From the IMG/VR virus record IMGVR_UViG_3300044991_001301: 64,000 nucleotides of DNA; one strand, 5' to 3'. Position 1 is the stretch's first letter; the number at the start of each line of letters is the position of its first letter. The stretch is from a virus. The translations under genes were made by a program, and so were the position numbers. The notes below the pieces were generated by a model that worked only from the letters and a program-made list of their open reading frames with translations, ran no database searches and was not told the origin of the DNA. Positions 1 to 37,046 of the stretch are shown here, in pieces.

Positions 1-3000
1 GATTGCCCAATTTTCATAAATCTCATAATTAATTCCACCCTGCGGTAGATTAACTCCCTTGAACGCACTAGCAGCGTTAAGTGTTCCTTTGTTCTTAATT
101 AAATTCTTGTATACATTAATTTGAGTAATGTCAGTTAAGTCGGCTAACGCAAGATAATCACGTGGGCGATATCCAATAAGCGAGAAACTTAATAAATCAG
201 CATCTGATTCTAAGTTAGCCTTGTCAACATTATAGTACAATGTGCTTTCATATGAGCGAGTGCTTGAGTTTGGTAGCAACCCTTTTTGAATTTGTTCGTA
301 GTCTGTCCGTTTCCAGTCATTGCTGTTGAATGTCTCGCTAGGTTGTATTACTCGTAACGCAGTCCAGTATTTATTTTTATACTGTACAATAACACCTTTG
401 GTATAAGTTAATGTTCGATTCCATTCTTGTATATTATCTTGATTGAGAATAAATCCAGCAGCATTGATCGTACCATTCCAGTCAGCAGTTTTTGTTCCAC
501 GCAGCACAATACGAAGTTGACGCAAACCTGTAGTTAAATTGTAGATGACATCATTGAACAGGGTAATGTTATCAAAAACAATGCCATGCTCAATGCTATG
601 TATATTAAATTGACCATACGCAAGGGTGTCACCGGCATTTAATGGTTTGATAACAAATTGCGTTTCGTCGCGCACAATTGCAAGATCCATTGATTGAATT
701 GGATATAAATTCTGATTCAATACAAAGTTAGTTTCACGCATTGTTAACGGTTGAACAATGTACCCGTCACGATTTATTTCCATAGTGCTAGCGGCCGGAT
801 TTATAGTCAACACACTGCCAACTTCCCATCCAGTTTGCGCCCAGTATAGCAGTTCAGCTATCATTTGATTCCAGGTAACTTCTAAACCATTTTCAATAGA
901 TGAGAATACCATACCCTGAGCTTCTTGATATGCTCCATATGCTCTTAGAAACTGTGCTAGTTCCTCTACTGTGTAGAACAGCGAACCATAGGGTACGATT
1001 ACTTCTTGAGTTGAGTAGTCGTTTGCCGTTCTTACCCGTAATGCATCCACTTCAGTAATGCTTGTATTACCGTTAGCCAATGGCTTTAATGTTTTGAAAT
1101 ATGCAGCAGTTTGTGAATTGCCATATACAGTATATCCGCTGTCAACTATTTGAATGACAACGCCTGAATACACAATCTTCTTAAAAGGTTGATTGTCATA
1201 TAACAATACCGCATAGCTTTCGTCTGGAATTAATAAGGACGCATTTCTATTATTTGCTGTGCCTTTTTCAACATAGAATTTTAATAATGTTTTGTCACTA
1301 AATCCCGCTAAGCGATATACCAATCTAACATCCAAGTTAAATAACAAGTTGGTGATATTCTGAGTAGCATCTACTCCAATTTGTTTTTCGTAATCAACGA
1401 TCCAATTGATATAACTAGTTTTAGCAGTACCTGATCCGTATATTTGAACATCACTAATAACAAGATGGCTTCTGTTGTTAACTAGATACTGGTCAAATTC
1501 AAGATTATATTTGTAGTTATCTAAATCTACACCTAAATTGAAGAATTGAGCAGGCTTAGCTAAAGCTAATATTTTCATTAGGTCGAAGGGCCAAGAGCTA
1601 CTTCTTCTGTAGCTTAATTCTGCAGGGCCTTCATCTCCCACTTTCCAATCACGTTGGAATATGTTACTATTATAACTGCCTACTATTGAATCTAGGGGTG
1701 ATACTAGATTGCCTTCAGTGTCAACCGGCAATACTTGTAACAGTTCAGGTCTAATAGCTTGTTTGATTACAATAGGTACACCGTTATTCCAATCAATTCC
1801 CTGTGCTAAATCATTCCATAAAATCAAGTTATCACTGGTATACGGTGCTGGACCATATCTGTCTTGCCACCAAGTTGGCTTCTCGGTAAACCCTAACATT
1901 TCCCAAGGTGTACTGTTAGGTGTAGTAGTATCATAATAATATTGATAAATTCCCCTCCAATAGCCTTGCTCAATAGGTTTCTTGTTTATCTTATTTCCAC
2001 TTTGATAATAATTATAAGTAAACTGGTCATTCTTGTTGTAAAGTTGTCTCTTGTAATTGATTCTATTTTGTCCAACCCAATTTAAGAATGATGCGCTATA
2101 CACCTCTAAGAATTCATTGTATGAATAGTCGGTTTCTCTGAAAAAGCCCGGCAACACTTCATATTCTTTAATAGGAATAATTGAACTTAACTTTAAGTTG
2201 TTAAACACCCGCAATTCGTATTCTAACAATACTTGATCTCTAAAGTCTATCAGTAATTCTAAAGTCGCATCATAGTTACCATACAACTTATTGTAAGAAC
2301 CATCGTGCCCTTTAATAAAATAGGTAGGCTGAGCATAATCACTGTCTAACACTACGCCCGGGGTATATGCAGGGTATAGGCCCAATTTAGTAGGTGTGTT
2401 AGGTATATAACTACCATATGTTTGATTGTATTCGTTAATGGTGATAATGTCATTAGGTAGTAAATCTAGCGTTACCGTTAGTGACGGTGAATCAGTACTG
2501 ATAACATAATCAACATTTACAATTAGTTGTTTAACAGAAGTGACACCGATTGTTGTTCGTGTGAGATATACTAAAACGCCATTGTAATTTGCTTTAGTAA
2601 AATCGTATGTGGTGCTTAATTTATAAATGCTTACATCTAAACTGTTTGCGAATGAATAAGAATTGGAAATATACGGGGCCTTAGATGGCACCATATCACT
2701 CCAGAAAAAGGGCTGCTCCTCAGTCTTAGACGCAACAATCTGATCCAGCGCATCATCCAACATTGTTGCAGGATCATACCGCTGTGAATAAGACGCATTG
2801 TTAACCGTATCAACTAATAGAGTTTTAAATTTAATATATTCTCTGCTGTTGAACATCAACGAGTTAAACAAATTATGATTTTGTTTTCTCAAGAATGTGC
2901 CAGGTAATACCAACGATGCGCTATTTTGAATAATACGGGTGCCATATGGAACTACATTACCCAAGTCACGGTAATTGTTCGAACCAAATACATTTCCAGT

Positions 3001-6000
3001 TGTGTCAGGATTGTTATAGAATATACTTTGATATTGTCCTCTAATATCACCTACGTTTGCTGTGGTAACGTCTGCATTTAGTGGATTGTTATTTAAGTTA
3101 ATTGGAATACTGTAGTAAGCGGTAGGACTAACTTGGTCACTTAATATTAATATTTGAACAGGGTTAAGTACCGCGTGATCAATGAACGTAACAGTAGTAC
3201 TGTTACTAGTGGTAGTAACAGTGTAATCTGCAGCGGTTTGTAGTACATTGTTAATGTAAACTTGAATAGTAGGCCAGACTGTTGTGGTACTATCCATTGG
3301 CGCAATATCACATATATACACTGAAGTAGGTGATGGTGTGCTATATGAGAATTCAAAAATTTGATATTGTACGCTCGGTGAGATCGCTGTCTGCCATCCC
3401 AATTGTCTTTCATACACAACGCGAGTTGGGTAATTGTACACATAACCAGTGTTGGTTTTTTGTGTGATCGGTGAAGAACCATTAACATAATTAAATGTGT
3501 CTAGGTTAAGAGATATGTCAAATGATATATCACCCACGTTGTCAATGGAGCTGTATCGGATAGGGAATCCAAGAATACCATCTACAAGTCCGGAACCCAA
3601 TCCATATGCGAATAATTTATTTCCCTTAAACGAAGTTCCGGTGTAAATTTCTGCGTCACCAAAGCTTATGCTGTTATCATCGAATACATCAAACAAGGGT
3701 GGTTGATTTACTTGAGTTTTCTGTTGTGTTTTAATCCATTCCACACCATCAAAATAGAATTCGTTACCTTGATTAAAATATCCACGTAATGCAACGGTCT
3801 GTTGATTAACTAACACTTGTCCGTCAGTAGCCTCAGTCAACGTAATTACCGGATCAGTAGTGCTGGTAACTGTCGAAAAACGACATACATAAATCTTATC
3901 TCTTACATTTTTATCTGTATCTACTGTGAACGCTACCCGAGCACCGTCAAATAACGCATAGGTGTCATTGGTGGTATCAGTTGCTATAATCGACGCAGTG
4001 GAAGTGCCGGCGAAGAAACTGCCTGAACTTGCATCCCACGATACTTCAAATATCGTTTGACTAGTAGTTACGGTGATCGCAGTTATCAGCGCGTTGGTTG
4101 GTATTAAATTAGTTGAGTCGGTAACATATTGCCCCAGAGCAAATGTTCCTGTTACGTCGGTGTTGTCTACTACAACTTCAGTGCTGCGTGGTGTCCAATA
4201 AAATCGCATTGACCCCGACGAACTTGACAAGGCAAATACATCACCGTTTTGTTCAGATGAGATAGTGAATGTAACTAAATCAATAATTTCTTTTACATAA
4301 TAATTTGCTTCAGCTACGACCCCTCCAAATACTGGTCCCAAGTCAACCGCATTAAACACTATCAGGTCATTAACTCTAAAACCAACCGTGCTATCGCAAG
4401 TAATAGTATTTGAAACTGCGGGAAGAGCCACGGTACCGATAGTATCAGTAGCTATTCTAGCGGATACATAATCAGTAGATGCGATAGTTCCGCTATACGC
4501 GGTGTACACTGTAACGTCAGGATAGTAATTTTGTTGTCCTGCTACTAAAGAGAATGCATCTATAGTTCTGGTGTCGATAAAATCAACGGGCGACTTACCT
4601 TCTGTTCCAGCGTTGAACAACCGTAAGTTAGGATAAAATTCGATAATGGGGCGTTTAGCTTTATTATCTGCGGTAGCATAAACACTTACTGAATTGGGAT
4701 TGTTATTGTACAGTGCTGCCGCGTTGATTACGTCTACGTGGAACCAACGATTACTCCTTGACCAGGCATTTTTGTCTAATGAATTTCTAGATATGGTTAT
4801 ATAATCGGGTGTTACCGGAACATACGAGTTACCTTCCCAATTTCCAATATCATACGCTAGAGTATCCCATGGTATGTATGTGCTAGATGTAAAACTTTCG
4901 GGTGATATTAAATCAGAAACCGGTACTAGTTCTATTGCGCTGCCAACACCTTCGACATAATATTGCCCTGATTTATAGCTTGCGGGAACGATGTCTCCCT
5001 GAAATACCACCTTCAATCCATTTGTAAATACAATCCCGGTTGATGATGTGAAATTCTTTCTACCCAAAATATCAGCATCAACATCCAAGGTGTTAGTAAC
5101 ATTACTCTCGATCAATCTAATGATGCCAACTTTATTAGCTGAAGTTCCATCTTGGTAATACAATATATCTAGAGGCGCAGTTATGTAGGGGATTAACACA
5201 ATGGCGCCGGCTGGATTTTTATAGAAATATCTATTCAACCATTGTGTACCATACAACGCTGTTATCTTTTCATTAGTAGGTATAGAGCTACTTGGGATCA
5301 ATCTTATAACAGGGTCCGTTGGGTCACCGACATAAGTAATTGTGTAAAAGGTCTGACTTACTGTAGTGTAATATCCCTCTTCATATAAACCTTGATTGAT
5401 ATTACCGATCATTGATCCAGATGCAGTGGTTAGTACTACGTCGCTACCGCCTAACAGAGCGGAGACAGTAAATTCTGTCAATGACGAAATTGAACTTATA
5501 TAGTATATTGTTGGTAAAAAGGCAGTCGCATTGCCGGTGCCAGATCCAGCAGCTATCGCAGTGAATATCTTACCCGCTACAATATCATACCCGTAAATAG
5601 TAGTACTAGCTACAGTTTGTGATTGATCTAGCGTGTATGTATCTGTAGCTAAATCATAACTAACAATTACTGTACCTGCGGTAACTCCAAATCCTGCTAG
5701 TGTTTGTCCTATAACTAGCGAGCCTGAGTTTACTGTAGTAACTGTTAATGCGTATCCAGCAATAGAGCCTGTAATGTCAGCACTTGCTGTTACACCTGCC
5801 GCTATCCAATCCGTTGTTCCAATAGTAGTGATAGCATATTCTTGCCCGATAGCAAACGACCCGGCAGCTATTACTGTAGGTGTGCCGGTAAAGTAAGATT
5901 GTATTCCACCGAATGTAGTTCCGGTAAAGGTGATAGTATCGTTTACTGATAGATTTGCAGTAGAATTACAAGTGATTAAATTTCCAGTTGCACTGGTATC

Positions 6001-6987
6001 GGTCACTGTGATAGTTTCTGCTGGAACTAGGTTATTATTTTCATCATAATTAGTATAGTCAAAGAAGTTGGATACAAATCCAATCTCAGATGGATATCCT
6101 GTATTGTAAAACATTACAGTTAGCCCGTCCAGAGAAGTTATCCCGTCAATGTTTCCCACTTGCGATAGTAGTTGTCCATTGATGTCGCTATACGGCAATG
6201 TGCTTACTACACCAACAACATTGTTCCCGGGAAAATTATACTGGTCGTCTTGTGCAGTTTTACTAGGTACAGCGAACGTTACAATGCCATTCATTGCTCC
6301 GTTATTTGATACACCATATACCTCACGTGTATATATATTTGGTTGAGTAGGGCTATACCCACTAACGCCCGGTTCAGTTTGTATCCAAAAAGCAGAATTT
6401 TGATTAACTTCAAACGTATATGACCCACCACGAAGCATTGTCAAGGTTGGGTTTATAGTGCCGCCGGCCGTACCCACAGGAGAGATTTGATATCCGTTTG
6501 CTAGATCAGTTACAGCATATGCGGTACTGCTGTATACAGTTTCAGTAGATACAGTAACTTGATCAGGACCTTCAGGAAGCCAATAATATTGGTTGAAGTT
6601 AATTATCTTATCTAAGTTAGTAAATGAATCCCACGAATAGAATTCACTATTGAATAGTCTGTTGTTGTTTTCAGTGAGGCCACCCTCTATTTGAAGAGCA
6701 TCCAATATACCGGGATAGCTAATAAAATCTTGAGCAACAGATTCGTTGGGTTTAGTAAAAACAACACCCGGATCTAATTGGTAATCAACCCTAGTTTTAG
6801 TAGGTTCAGTTACATAATAGTCTTTGGCATTAATGCCATATCCAAATTTACTACCGATATACCCTTCAATTTTTTTAGTATTTGGTTGCGATACCAATTG
6901 ATCGAGGGTAGCACTCAAAAATTGAGCGTTAGTGGGTGTTTGGAATATTTCCGGAAGAAATGATAATGTTCTAATTCTTGTGGCCAT
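1..6987 (-). CDS. Very large virion/baseplate wedge protein (gp7-like position), 3' end beyond window, >2329 aa
   Basis: Missing from the ORF track because no stop lies in the window. ATG at 6987 reads [31 protein letters not shown]..., and the same frame reads ...[13 protein letters not shown] at position 1; internal segments checked are open. Lies directly after the gp6-like gene and is preceded by TAAGTA. Confidence 0.8.
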
Positions 6988-6995
6988 AATAGTAC

Positions 6996-32935: not shown

Positions 32936-33097
32936 ATGGCTTTGTATCTTAGAGGTAAAGATCACTTGCGTAATGTAACGCAAGTGTATCTGTACAGTAG
33001 GACTCGTACATCCATAGAGCGATGTACGAGTCCTTGTACGCTTACTAGATACAAAACTACAAATAGTTGGTCATTTCGTTCGACGGAGATTCTATAA
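32936..33097 (+). other. Duplicated protease start plus structured insert forming a 53-codon uORF
   Basis: ATG GCT TTG TAT CTT AGA (MALYLR...) is open to TAA 33095-33097, which overlaps the real ATG GCA TTA TAC TTA AAA (MALYLK). Contains 9-bp and 14-bp perfect stems. Confidence 0.7.
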
Positions 33098-33738
33098 TGG
33101 CATTATACTTAAAAGAGCACTTGACATTTGACCGCGCTGGAATGGTGGTTGAATCAGTAAGTGAAGGGGATAAAAAGAACCTGTATATGAAGGGGATTTT
33201 TATTCAGGGCGGAGTTACGAACGCAAATGACCGTGTGTATCCTATTTCTGAAATAGAATCTGCGGTAAATACGTTGAATGAACAAATTACAACTGGTTAT
33301 TCAGTATTAGGTGAAGTAGATCATCCAGACGATTTAAAAATTAATTTAGATCGGGTATCACATATGATTACTAGTATGTGGATGGATGGCGCTAATGGGT
33401 TTGGAAAACTAAAAATCTTACCAACTCCAATGGGTCAGCTAGTAACTACCATGTTAGAGAGTGGTGTTAAACTTGGTGTATCAAGTCGTGGTAGTGGTAA
33501 TGTTAATGATATGGATGGCAGAGTTAGTGATTTTGAAATAGTAACAGTTGATATCGTAGCGCAACCATCTGCTCCAAATGCTTATCCAAAAGCTATTTAC
33601 GAAGGTATGTTGAATATGAAGCACGGCCATAAGATTTTATCAAATCTTAAAGGTGCAGATGCTAGTAAAGATGCTAAAGTTCAAAGATATGTGAAAGAAG
33701 AGATAATTCGTTTAATCAAGGATATGAAAATAAAATGA
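33097..33738 (+). CDS. Prohead protease (T4 gp21-like)
   Basis: GIFIQ...NAN.RVYP, LGEVDHP, DRVSH, GVSSRGSG, DIVAQPSAPNAY; SD GGAG before ATG 33097. Confidence 0.93.
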   Translation: MALYLKEHLTFDRAGMVVESVSEGDKKNLYMKGIFIQGGVTNANDRVYPISEIESAVNTLNEQITTGYSVLGEVDHPDDLKINLDRVSHMITSMWMDGANGFGKLKILPTPMGQLVTTMLESGVKLGVSSRGSGNVNDMDGRVSDFEIVTVDIVAQPSAPNAYPKAIYEGMLNMKHGHKILSNLKGADASKDAKVQRYVKEEIIRLIKDMKIK

Positions 33739-33828
33739 TTAAGCGGATACAAATACACGGAGTAGATAGGTCTACTTCTGTAATACTTGGTGAACCAGAG
33801 TTAAATGGTTCAAAACAAGGGGGAAATA

Positions 33829-36299: not shown

Positions 36300-37046
36300 A
36301 TGAACAAATATGAAAAATGGCACAAACAAATTACAGAGCGCGGCCAGAGCCGTATCTATGATCCTAAAAACGAAAACCATCATATTCTTCCGAAAAGTTT
36401 AGGCGGCACGAATAAGAAAGAAAATCTTACTAACATAACACCTAGGGAACACTTTATATGTCATTGGTTATTAACAAAGATATACAAAGACGGCGAAGCG
36501 CATTGGAAAATGCTAAATGCTATTCGTATAATGCGGGCTGAAAATAAGAATCAACAGCGACACACTACTAAAATTACTTCCAGAGTGTATGCCAGACTCA
36601 AAGAGGAATATGCTTTACTTAGTAGTGAGAAACGTAAGGGTAAAGGAAACGGGATGTTTGGTAAGAAACAAACAGACAACGCTAAGCGAAAAATAAGCGA
36701 GGCAAATTCTGGTAGAATTCAACCCGATCATGAAAAACAAAAACAAATTGAGGCTATTACAGGAAGAAAACGAAACCCTTTCTCTACTCAATGGAAAGAA
36801 AAAATGTCATCATCCAAACAAGGGGAAAAGAATAATATGTTTGGAAAAAATCACACTGATGAAACTAAACAGAAACAGCGTGAGAAAGCAACAGGAAGAA
36901 AACAATCACCTGAAACTGTTGCTAAAAAAGCAGAAGCTATCAGAGGACTAAAGCGTGAAAAGAAACTATGCCCACATTGTAATAACGAAGTAGCAGTCAA
37001 TGGTTATACAAGATGGCATGGAGACAATTGTAAGCAAAAAGCATAA
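36300..37046 (+). CDS. Free-standing HNH homing endonuclease with NUMOD3 repeats
   Basis: ENHHILPKSLGG.N...NL..ITPREHFICHWLL; repeats N.MFGKKQT/NNMFGKNHTDETK; C-terminal CPHC...RWHGDNC. Confidence 0.88.
   Translation: MNKYEKWHKQITERGQSRIYDPKNENHHILPKSLGGTNKKENLTNITPREHFICHWLLTKIYKDGEAHWKMLNAIRIMRAENKNQQRHTTKITSRVYARLKEEYALLSSEKRKGKGNGMFGKKQTDNAKRKISEANSGRIQPDHEKQKQIEAITGRKRNPFSTQWKEKMSSSKQGEKNNMFGKNHTDETKQKQREKATGRKQSPETVAKKAEAIRGLKREKKLCPHCNNEVAVNGYTRWHGDNCKQKA

Follow-up and report, generated by a model that had tools for sequence, protein, structure and literature searches.

The virus record IMGVR_UViG_3300044991_001301 of IMG/VR belongs to an uncultured T4-like jumbo phage from lake water, and the window considered here is the whole stretch of 64,000 nucleotides (nt) analysed under this record. 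The head module of the phage contains, in this order, a portal gene, a small open reading frame (ORF), an acidic head protein gene, an intact prohead core protease gene of the T4 gp21 type (Pfam Peptidase_S77, expectation value E 1.6e-28), a scaffold gene and the major capsid gene, and a late-promoter-like ATAAATA at 31687 precedes the operon. The present analysis deals with an insert of 161 nt located at the start of the protease gene, where the first codons of the gene occur twice, with a first start codon (ATG1) at 32936 and a second one (ATG2) at 33097. The features of the locus, named according to the interpretation favoured below and with related phage contigs or loci designated by L-numbers, are the following.

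29889-31682: portal gene, first gene of the head module.
Between the portal gene and the acidic head protein gene: small ORF of the head module.
32037-32918: acidic head protein gene (stop codon 32916-32918), directly before the protease locus.
32920-32935, plus strand: ancestral translation-initiation region of the protease gene, 2-17 nt past the stop of the acidic head protein gene; the ...GGAAnCTGAGAGCA-ATG context occurs in 45 distinct insert-less relatives.
32921-33093, plus strand: predicted basal helix closing the whole insert and sequestering the old Shine-Dalgarno (SD) sequence and ATG (32921-32956 with 33040-33093), from the minimum free energy (MFE) structure and the partition function.
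32936-32950, plus strand: stub consisting of the ancestral start and codons 2-5 (MALYL), now heading the fossil endonuclease frame; it matches the near-invariant start of the insert-less relatives and heads intact endonuclease ORFs in other relatives.
32936-33097, plus strand: fossil ORF of 53 codons and a stop, in which ~23 N-terminal and ~15 C-terminal codons of a Seg-like GIY-YIG gene flank a scrambled middle, from the ORF listing and BLASTP against L370.
32951-33043, plus strand: 5' remnant of the endonuclease gene, comprising a linker and the GIY...YIG motif region, the motif being no longer coded, from the alignment to L370, L377 and L379.
32959-32991, plus strand: hairpin A, a perfect stem of 9 base pairs (bp) with a 4-bp extension.
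32992-33039, plus strand: hairpin B, a 14-bp perfect stem with a 5-bp outer stem.
33044-33050, plus strand: approximate deletion junction, where ~460 nt of the endonuclease gene are gone, located by comparison with the 624-nt ORF of L370.
33051-33096, plus strand: 3' remnant of the endonuclease gene with the codons ...NSWSF..., the last codons serving as the new ribosome-binding region, from the alignment to the L370 3' end; the GGTTGGTCATTT motif is common to many cassettes.
33085-33088, plus strand: SD-like GGAG, 8 nt before ATG2.
33095-33099, plus strand: TAATG, the stop of the fossil ORF overlapping the new protease start.
33097-33123, plus strand: cassette-borne replacement start (MALYLKEHL).
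33097-33738, plus strand: prohead core protease gene.
33739-33828, plus strand: apparent second scar, a spacer of 90 nt reaching from the protease stop to the scaffold start, resembling the 3' end of another Seg-like endonuclease gene (L372/L388 family).

The first-pass annotation of this stretch had described a protease start duplicated and synonymously recoded around a structured insert, and its account of the anatomy holds. Both starts are present, ATG1 opening MALYLRGKDHL and ATG2 opening MALYLKEHL, and their codons 2-5 differ only synonymously (GCT/GCA, TTG/TTA, TAT/TAC and CTT/TTA). Two perfect stems of 9 bp (32963-32971 with 32978-32986) and 14 bp (32999-33012 with 33021-33034) occur between them, and an alternative pairing with the first start region is offered by AGATACAAA (33047-33055) through its complementarity to TTTGTATCT (32941-32949). 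From ATG1, the frame runs through 53 codons to a TAA (33095-33097) overlapping ATG2. The duplication spans 27 nt, from ATG to CACTTG, rather than 15, with AAAGATCACTTG (32957-32968) equal to AAAGAGCACTTG (33112-33123) at 11 of 12 positions. The upstream copy (copy A) is broken by six extra nt and one substitution, and the downstream copy (copy B) carries five substitutions, all of them within codons 2-5 and all synonymous. The contiguous native 27-nt site is consequently gone from the window, copy A being interrupted after 15 nt and copy B being recoded.

The ancestral state of the locus was deduced from the 80 nearest IMG/VR protease loci, whose products are 85-99% identical to the protease of the window (residues 1-213). 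Seventy-six of these loci are insert-less and give 45 distinct start haplotypes. All 76 open the protease gene with the upstream-type ATGGCTTTGTATCTY, a comparison that the earlier proposal of a homing element survives. In these insert-less loci, the protease gene begins 12-20 nt past the upstream gene with ATGGCTTTGTATCTY AAR GAR CAY YTN, and copy A of the window is identical to the ATGGCTTTGTATCTY part. Since the upstream copy matches the start of the relatives, it is the ancestral one and the downstream copy is a replacement, altered exactly where the relatives never change. The wobble positions of codons 2-5 (GCT TTG TAT CTY) are almost invariant over the 45 insert-free haplotypes and those of codons 6-9 vary freely; the invariant wobbles of codons 1-5 point to a constraint at the nucleotide level, either an initiation signal or an endonuclease target kept uniform by repeated conversion. 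Since all the insert-less relatives show the upstream-type start, the insert entered after codon 5, bringing its own GGAG and a recoded start.

With respect to its distribution, the insert is present in four IMG/VR and two JGI contigs, always at the same locus and in a single haplotype, with three substitutions relative to the window. Pairing is kept as G-U at the two that lie in stems, and the third one lies in a loop, all three being compatible with the fold; with two haplotypes, covariation within the insert lineage has no power. Genome-wide searching, by which the first-pass annotation had proposed to check its reading, returned this locus only. Short-word BLAST detected no other copy of the core in the window, and neither did searches of five related phage records (BLAST and a covariance model), one of them a complete genome of 348 kb, or of the GenBank phage collection. 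The exact hairpin patterns, searched in IMG/VR, the JGI metagenomes and the GTDB genomes, retrieved the same locus only, the other 19 metagenome matches being chance palindromes. Rfam searches of the region (E up to 10) and of the window (gathering threshold), together with an ARAGORN transfer RNA scan, gave nothing relevant. No close insert-free relative was found in the own lineage of the window, and no donor lineage possessing the recoded start as its native start.

Intact elements were found at the same site by scanning IMG/VR for a 14-nt stub followed by anything but the native sixth codon, only the loci with a protease homologue being kept. In several relatives, the stub and the protease gene lie 620-805 nt apart, and the stub opens an ORF of 206-266 amino acids that reaches within a few bases of the protease start. 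A family search with the stub-fused ORFs yielded 132 IMG/VR relatives; of the best 80, at least 25 carry the fusion to a MALYL-type stub directly upstream of the protease gene, and another large group of the family sits directly downstream of that gene. Over at least 25 IMG/VR loci, the stub-fused intact ORFs measure 206-281 amino acids. They are Seg-like GIY-YIG/NUMOD3 homing endonuclease genes fused in frame to the protease stub. All five ORFs tested match PHROG 314 'homing endonuclease' (E 1e-13 to 1e-27), three of the five contain NUMOD3 above the Pfam cut-off, and SegE_GIY-YIG comes just under the Pfam cut-off in two ORFs and faintly (E 0.29) in a third. Their N-terminal conserved block, ...AY[LV]Y[KR]WTH.PT.KWYVGSRT...E...N..., is spaced like the GIY-YIG motif. 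The N-domain, modelled with AlphaFold from 35 sequences (predicted local distance difference test, pLDDT, 77), finds in Foldseek the catalytic domain of I-TevI as top matches (1mk0 and 1ln0, probability 0.99, E 0.03), with the GIY-YIG domains of UvrC ranking lower; an earlier model from 5 sequences was too poor for use (pLDDT 48). Because the sequence-only PDB profile searches with the endonuclease family gave no match, the assignment of the GIY-YIG fold to the intact ORFs is moderately, not strongly, supported.

In most of the intact cassettes, the stop overlaps the replacement start of the protease gene (TAATG, TGATG, ATGA or GTGA, e.g., in L366, L363, L377 and L370), a short spacer occurring in a few. 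Most of them also contain, 7-12 nt ahead of the replacement start and thus within the final endonuclease codons, an AAGGA/GGAG-type motif. The replacement starts all keep Y-L-[KR]-E, and 13 of the 13 cassettes listed differ from the native ATGGCTTTGTATCT. Another arrangement occurs in L358 (2399-4736), where the protease gene stands between two intact Seg-like endonuclease genes and the upstream cassette is fused after ~34 protease codons, resulting in a diverged 34-codon duplicate of the protease N-terminus.

The insert of the window is homologous to both ends of such a gene. BLASTP of the 53-codon frame against the L370 endonuclease aligned the N-terminus with 15 identities out of 29 (E 2e-7, MALYLRGKDHLRNVTQVYLY to MALYLRAKDRLSANTQAYLY) and the C-terminus as TTNSWSFR to NTNGWSFQ (E 0.03), the two matches being colinear. 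At the DNA level, the 5' part of the core, stub excluded, scored z 6.0, 7.2 and 5.7 against L370, L377 and L379, respectively, and the 3' part scored z 7.2 against the L370 3' end, with 0 of 300 shuffles as good in each comparison. The aligned blocks correspond to L370 2501-2570 (window 32936-33005, 74% identity) and L370 3078-3150 (window 33051-33123), and the similarity persists when the 15-nt stub and the protease start are left out. Since the alignment blocks skip L370 from ~2612 to 3078, some 460 nt of the gene are missing, which cover the remainder of the catalytic domain together with the DNA-binding NUMOD3 part. Homology to the intact cassettes of the same site is therefore found on both sides of the deletion, as in a remnant. 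The 53-codon ORF itself has no Pfam match and the codons of its GIY...YIG motif are scrambled, so that it does not qualify as an active nuclease. Word-based protein searches with the 53-residue frame retrieved only the frame itself and no longer relative, which is a false negative given the diverged intact endonucleases.

Presence/absence polymorphism and a co-conversion gradient were found together for an intact relative of the insert. L422, with a cassette at 2221-2799, and L153, without any cassette around 4490, differ at 1 position over the 442 nt upstream. Past the replacement start, the initial 564 nt of the protease gene contain 24 differences and the following 1776 nt contain 9. This gradient indicates a recent homing of the intact relative. 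Mixed infections are plausible, as the lake samples with the window phage also contain insert-free relatives.

The RNA of the locus is predicted to fold strongly. For 32920-33125 (206 nt), the MFE amounts to -70.2 kcal/mol versus -44.4 +/- 4.3 for shuffled sequences (z -6.0, 0 of 200 as good), and, owing to G-U pairs in the basal helix, the sense strand has an advantage of ~6 kcal/mol over the antisense strand. Averaged over the predicted ensemble, the old start region is unpaired with a probability of 0.15 and ATG1 with 0.04, against 0.42 in the new start region, the latter value being indistinguishable from the 0.45 +/- 0.05 of the native start in the 45 relatives folded likewise. Opening the old start would cost ~14 kcal/mol. 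The duplex of the native start sequence with the 3' part of the insert reaches -23.5 versus -14.4 +/- 3.3 for shuffles (12 of 1000 as good), which is moderately beyond chance. As the old region is predicted to be locked and the new start to be as accessible as a native start, the protease presumably starts at 33097.

Both hairpins have counterparts in the intact cassettes. Among the 16 stub-fused cassettes besides the window, 14 fold an equivalent of hairpin A immediately ahead of the A-[YF]-[LV]-Y codons, and in L379 and L383 this hairpin is marginal. Its arms differ from one cassette to another yet compensate each other (CTTGAGT/ACTCAAG, CTCTAGT/ACTAGAG and CCAAAGT/ACTTTGG, with CTTGCGT/ACGCAAG in the window), and the mean z of this short segment in the cassettes is -2.1. 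In the intact endonuclease genes, the counterpart of hairpin B is a quasi-palindrome in the codons for WTH[IV]P and WYVGS, which pairs at 12.0 of 13 positions in the stub-fused members versus 10.0 in the other family members (Mann-Whitney p 5e-5, uncorrected for relatedness). The first base of the I/V codon covaries perfectly with the third base of the Tyr codon, as A-T in 11 cases and G-C in 4. In the window, both stems are perfect though the GIY...YIG motif is no longer encoded.

Taken together, these data make it very probable that the insert is what remains, without its nuclease, of a free-standing homing endonuclease cassette of the Seg-like GIY-YIG type. Of the origins considered in the first-pass annotation, that of a footprint left by a homing element which replaced the gene start is thereby upheld, by the old start of the insert-less relatives, by the shared layout of the intact endonucleases of the same site and by the homology of the insert to both ends of the gene. 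As observed in related lake phages, an intact cassette sits after codon 5 of the protease gene and is read in frame from the protease's own start, and therefore borrows the ribosome-binding region of that gene. The cassette ends with a stop mostly overlapping a replacement protease start, with an SD sequence in its last codons and with the first protease codons re-spelled or otherwise altered. The lineage of the window lost ~460 nt of the endonuclease gene and retains, besides the stub and the replacement start, ~95 nt from the beginning and ~45 nt from the end of that gene. The data demonstrate the ancestral state, the homology to the two cassette ends, the identity of the intact gene and the recent movement of an intact relative. 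The protease would now be translated from ATG2 by direct initiation at GGAG-N8-ATG, and a second possible route would be termination-reinitiation by ribosomes reading the 53-codon fossil frame; the upstream stop does overlap the downstream start as in a coupled upstream ORF (uORF), the reinitiation itself being putative. The old start would be largely silenced by the helix formed with the 3' part of the insert, and the stems would descend from hairpins of the cassette, their perfect pairing being perhaps due to quasi-palindrome correction after the coding constraint had gone.

Several points weigh against such an origin or leave parts of it conditional. Perfect palindromes of 14 and 9 bp are not expected from the simple decay of an ORF, and suggest selection on the RNA or quasi-palindrome correction. 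The middle ~45 nt of the insert (33006-33050) are rearranged and align only in scraps. No copy with an intact endonuclease was found in the own lineage of the window, and the closest cassette-bearing relatives share only ~82-87% protease identity with it. A contig of 151 nt from a freshwater metatranscriptome spans 32926-33076 unspliced, as a single instance and possibly a DNA carry-over. The start in use is deduced from the sequence and the predicted folding, and both the cutting of the insert-free allele and the resistance of the two altered copies are putative.

The Seg endonucleases (SegA-G) of the T4-type phages are free-standing GIY-YIG enzymes responsible for an intron-less homing with co-conversion of flanking markers. 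The intact relatives resemble them by their GIY-YIG N-domain followed by NUMOD3-type DNA-binding repeats, by their location in a T4-like head module, and by presence/absence with a co-conversion gradient. They differ from the classical Seg genes, which are intergenic and possess their own start, by their fusion to the first five (~34 in L358) codons of the target gene, whose ribosome-binding region they use and whose start they re-supply; the copy of the window differs further by the loss of the nuclease. In fungal mitochondria, mobile endonuclease ORFs create hybrid genes by replacing the displaced end of the invaded gene. Similarly, the WHO elements located at FBA1 of yeast home without an intron and supply a new copy of the gene end that they displace (Coughlan et al. 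2020, PMC7282813). As in these elements, the cassettes stand in a coding region, bring a replacement gene end and leave the old end as a stub, which is an analogy of mechanism and not a membership; the WHO elements belong to a eukaryotic host, encode LAGLIDADG/intein-like enzymes and replace the 3' end, in contrast to the 5' end replaced by a GIY-YIG cassette in the phage. In the MobA-gene 60 cassette of T4-like phages, the endonuclease was progressively lost and the non-coding insert retained (bioRxiv 10.1101/2022.08.31.505936). Here too, an endonuclease cassette located inside a coding region carries extra sequence that keeps the host gene functional. However, MobA is an HNH enzyme and gene 60 is rescued by a protein split and a 50-nt ribosomal bypass, whereas the rescue in the window would consist of a replacement start with a stop-start overlap, which needs no bypass. 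The decay of endonuclease genes, their loss with retention of an accessory insert (MobA-gene 60) and the replacement of a displaced gene end (WHO elements) are thus already known. An in-frame Seg-like fusion combined with a coupled, re-spelled start, a conserved post-start hairpin and a 161-nt nuclease-less derivative was not found described in the literature searched.

A second, independently reduced nuclease-less remnant probably occurs in L161 (4664-4810), where an insert of 146 nt follows the same stub and precedes a diverged protease gene. It contains three hairpins and a 42-codon open frame ending in a GTGA stop-start overlap. Its identification relies on N-terminal peptide similarity and on the layout, the DNA-level homology to L361 being not significant.

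The stub, the post-start hairpin, the open frame and the stop-start overlap are all kept both in the window and in L161, and the open frame and overlap of L161 hint that the coupling matters. It is conceivable, although rather unlikely, that the remnant has been kept as an expression module composed of these four parts, the protease being mainly made by reinitiation, and that start-hijacking Seg endonucleases, fused in frame and with a conserved hairpin behind the start, form a distinct, common class of phage homing elements.

The first-pass annotation had also offered a uORF or RNA switch lowering the protease dosage as an origin of the insert. Taken as a primarily evolved regulatory module that tunes, and probably lowers, the dosage, its likeness to mobile elements being secondary, the insert would account for its strong fold, for the sequestered old start, for a 53-codon frame that ends in TAATG (a chance of ~2-7% by our own estimate), for the open frame and GTGA overlap of the probable independent mini remnant L161 and for three haplotype substitutions that all preserve the fold. 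However, both ends of the insert are homologous to an endonuclease gene, and the hairpins, the SD sequence and the stop-start overlap are inherited from intact cassettes, so that none of them needs a new regulatory origin. In addition, the insert is confined to one lineage in which covariation has no power, and the new start is as accessible as the native start of the relatives, with no sign of a lowered dosage. A regulatory origin is accordingly improbable. Of the original suggestion, the switch is unneeded to explain the origin of the insert, and a retained role of the uORF in coupling is possible; an exaptation of the remnant after the decay of the cassette may have occurred.

A neutral insertion of unrelated origin, by template switch or local duplication, with a chance likeness to mobile elements, is very improbable. 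Inverted copies of flanking words do occur within the core, and neither exact-pattern, BLAST nor covariance-model searches disclosed another copy of it, but the core is not significantly similar to the flanking gene (best p 0.04), and its colinear homology to both ends of the endonuclease genes of the same site is highly significant. Tandem duplication of the 5' end of the gene, or templated copying of its flanks, was rejected on the same lack of significant similarity (best p 0.04).

A bypass of the T4 gene 60 type, starting at ATG1, taking off at CAC TTG (32963-32968) and landing at CAC TTG (33118-33123) with 155 nt skipped, has next to no credibility: the matched codons, a hairpin beginning exactly at the putative take-off codons and the fact that the T4 bypass insert is likewise part of a homing endonuclease cassette (bioRxiv 10.1101/2022.08.31.505936) speak for it, but take-off is followed by CGT, which is not a stop and not known as a hungry codon, the T4 gap is only a third as long, the landing region has its own GGAG-N8-ATG and five codons synonymous to the native N-terminus, which would be pointless if skipped, and the intact cassettes of the same site end in a real stop overlapping a real start. 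The first-pass annotation had rightly rated bypass or excision as unlikely, since the insert lacks the defining marks of both a bypass and an intron. A self-splicing intron of group I or II was discarded on account of the absence of any Rfam match (E up to 10 in the region), the length of only 161 nt and the own start of the downstream exon. The apparent splicing in read mapping, i.e., uncovered bins and a 'skips 220' joint, stems from insert-free relatives in the same samples. An IS200/IS605-type mini element or a guide-RNA scaffold, considered from the subterminal hairpins, has no supporting match, and the duplicated target does not fit.

The surroundings of the insert contain further traces of mobile genes. 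The late-promoter motif is absent from the insert, a terminator was likewise not found in it, and one weak sigma-70-like consensus match (9/12) overlaps its 3' end. The spacer behind the protease gene looks like a second endonuclease scar from its sequence, ~55 nt of 33739-33828 being similar by eye, with no statistic, to the 3' end and junction of the L372 endonuclease. The scaffold gene of the window starts with MNLEI, as in the cassette-bearing relatives. In the endonuclease-free relatives checked, the spacer measures 12-16 nt in 16 of 17 (~120 nt in L005), and all 17 scaffold genes start with MFDAI, MLDAI or MFDQL. The long spacer of L005, an endonuclease-free relative, extends ~120 nt past the protease stop (near 2712-2840), is hairpin-rich and may be another scar.

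Directly after the major capsid gene, the window contains an HNH and NUMOD3 homing endonuclease gene (36300-37046). The L082 haplotype, whose neighbouring genes are 99-100% identical to those of the window, has a different HNH gene at this place (453-1127 of L082, 33% identical), and several insert-free relatives have yet other HNH genes there (39-55% identical). The acidic repeat part of the upstream head protein gene (32037-32500) shows 89% identity with indels between two insert-bearing haplotypes, its flanks being 97-100% identical. At the other end of the window, positions 1-6990 of the minus strand hold a single frame open through all 2330 codons, which exits at the window start and is part of a giant gene; an ORF listing that ignores open ends leaves this region seemingly empty.

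The odd duplicated and recoded start of the protease gene is thus explained as a readable fossil of intron-less homing. It illustrates a little-described route, independent of introns, inteins and bypassing, by which a selfish endonuclease enters an essential coding region. In these lake jumbo phages, the prohead protease gene appears as a hot spot, with cassettes on both sides that are intact, recently moved or decayed, and offers a natural series for the way cassettes arrive, protect themselves and erode. For annotation, some caution is needed, since what looks like a short structured leader with a pseudo-start can be the scar of an endonuclease gene, and such scars escape word-based protein searches. 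Should the possibility of a class of start-hijacking Seg endonucleases prove true, these enzymes would permanently rewire the translation of the genes they invade.

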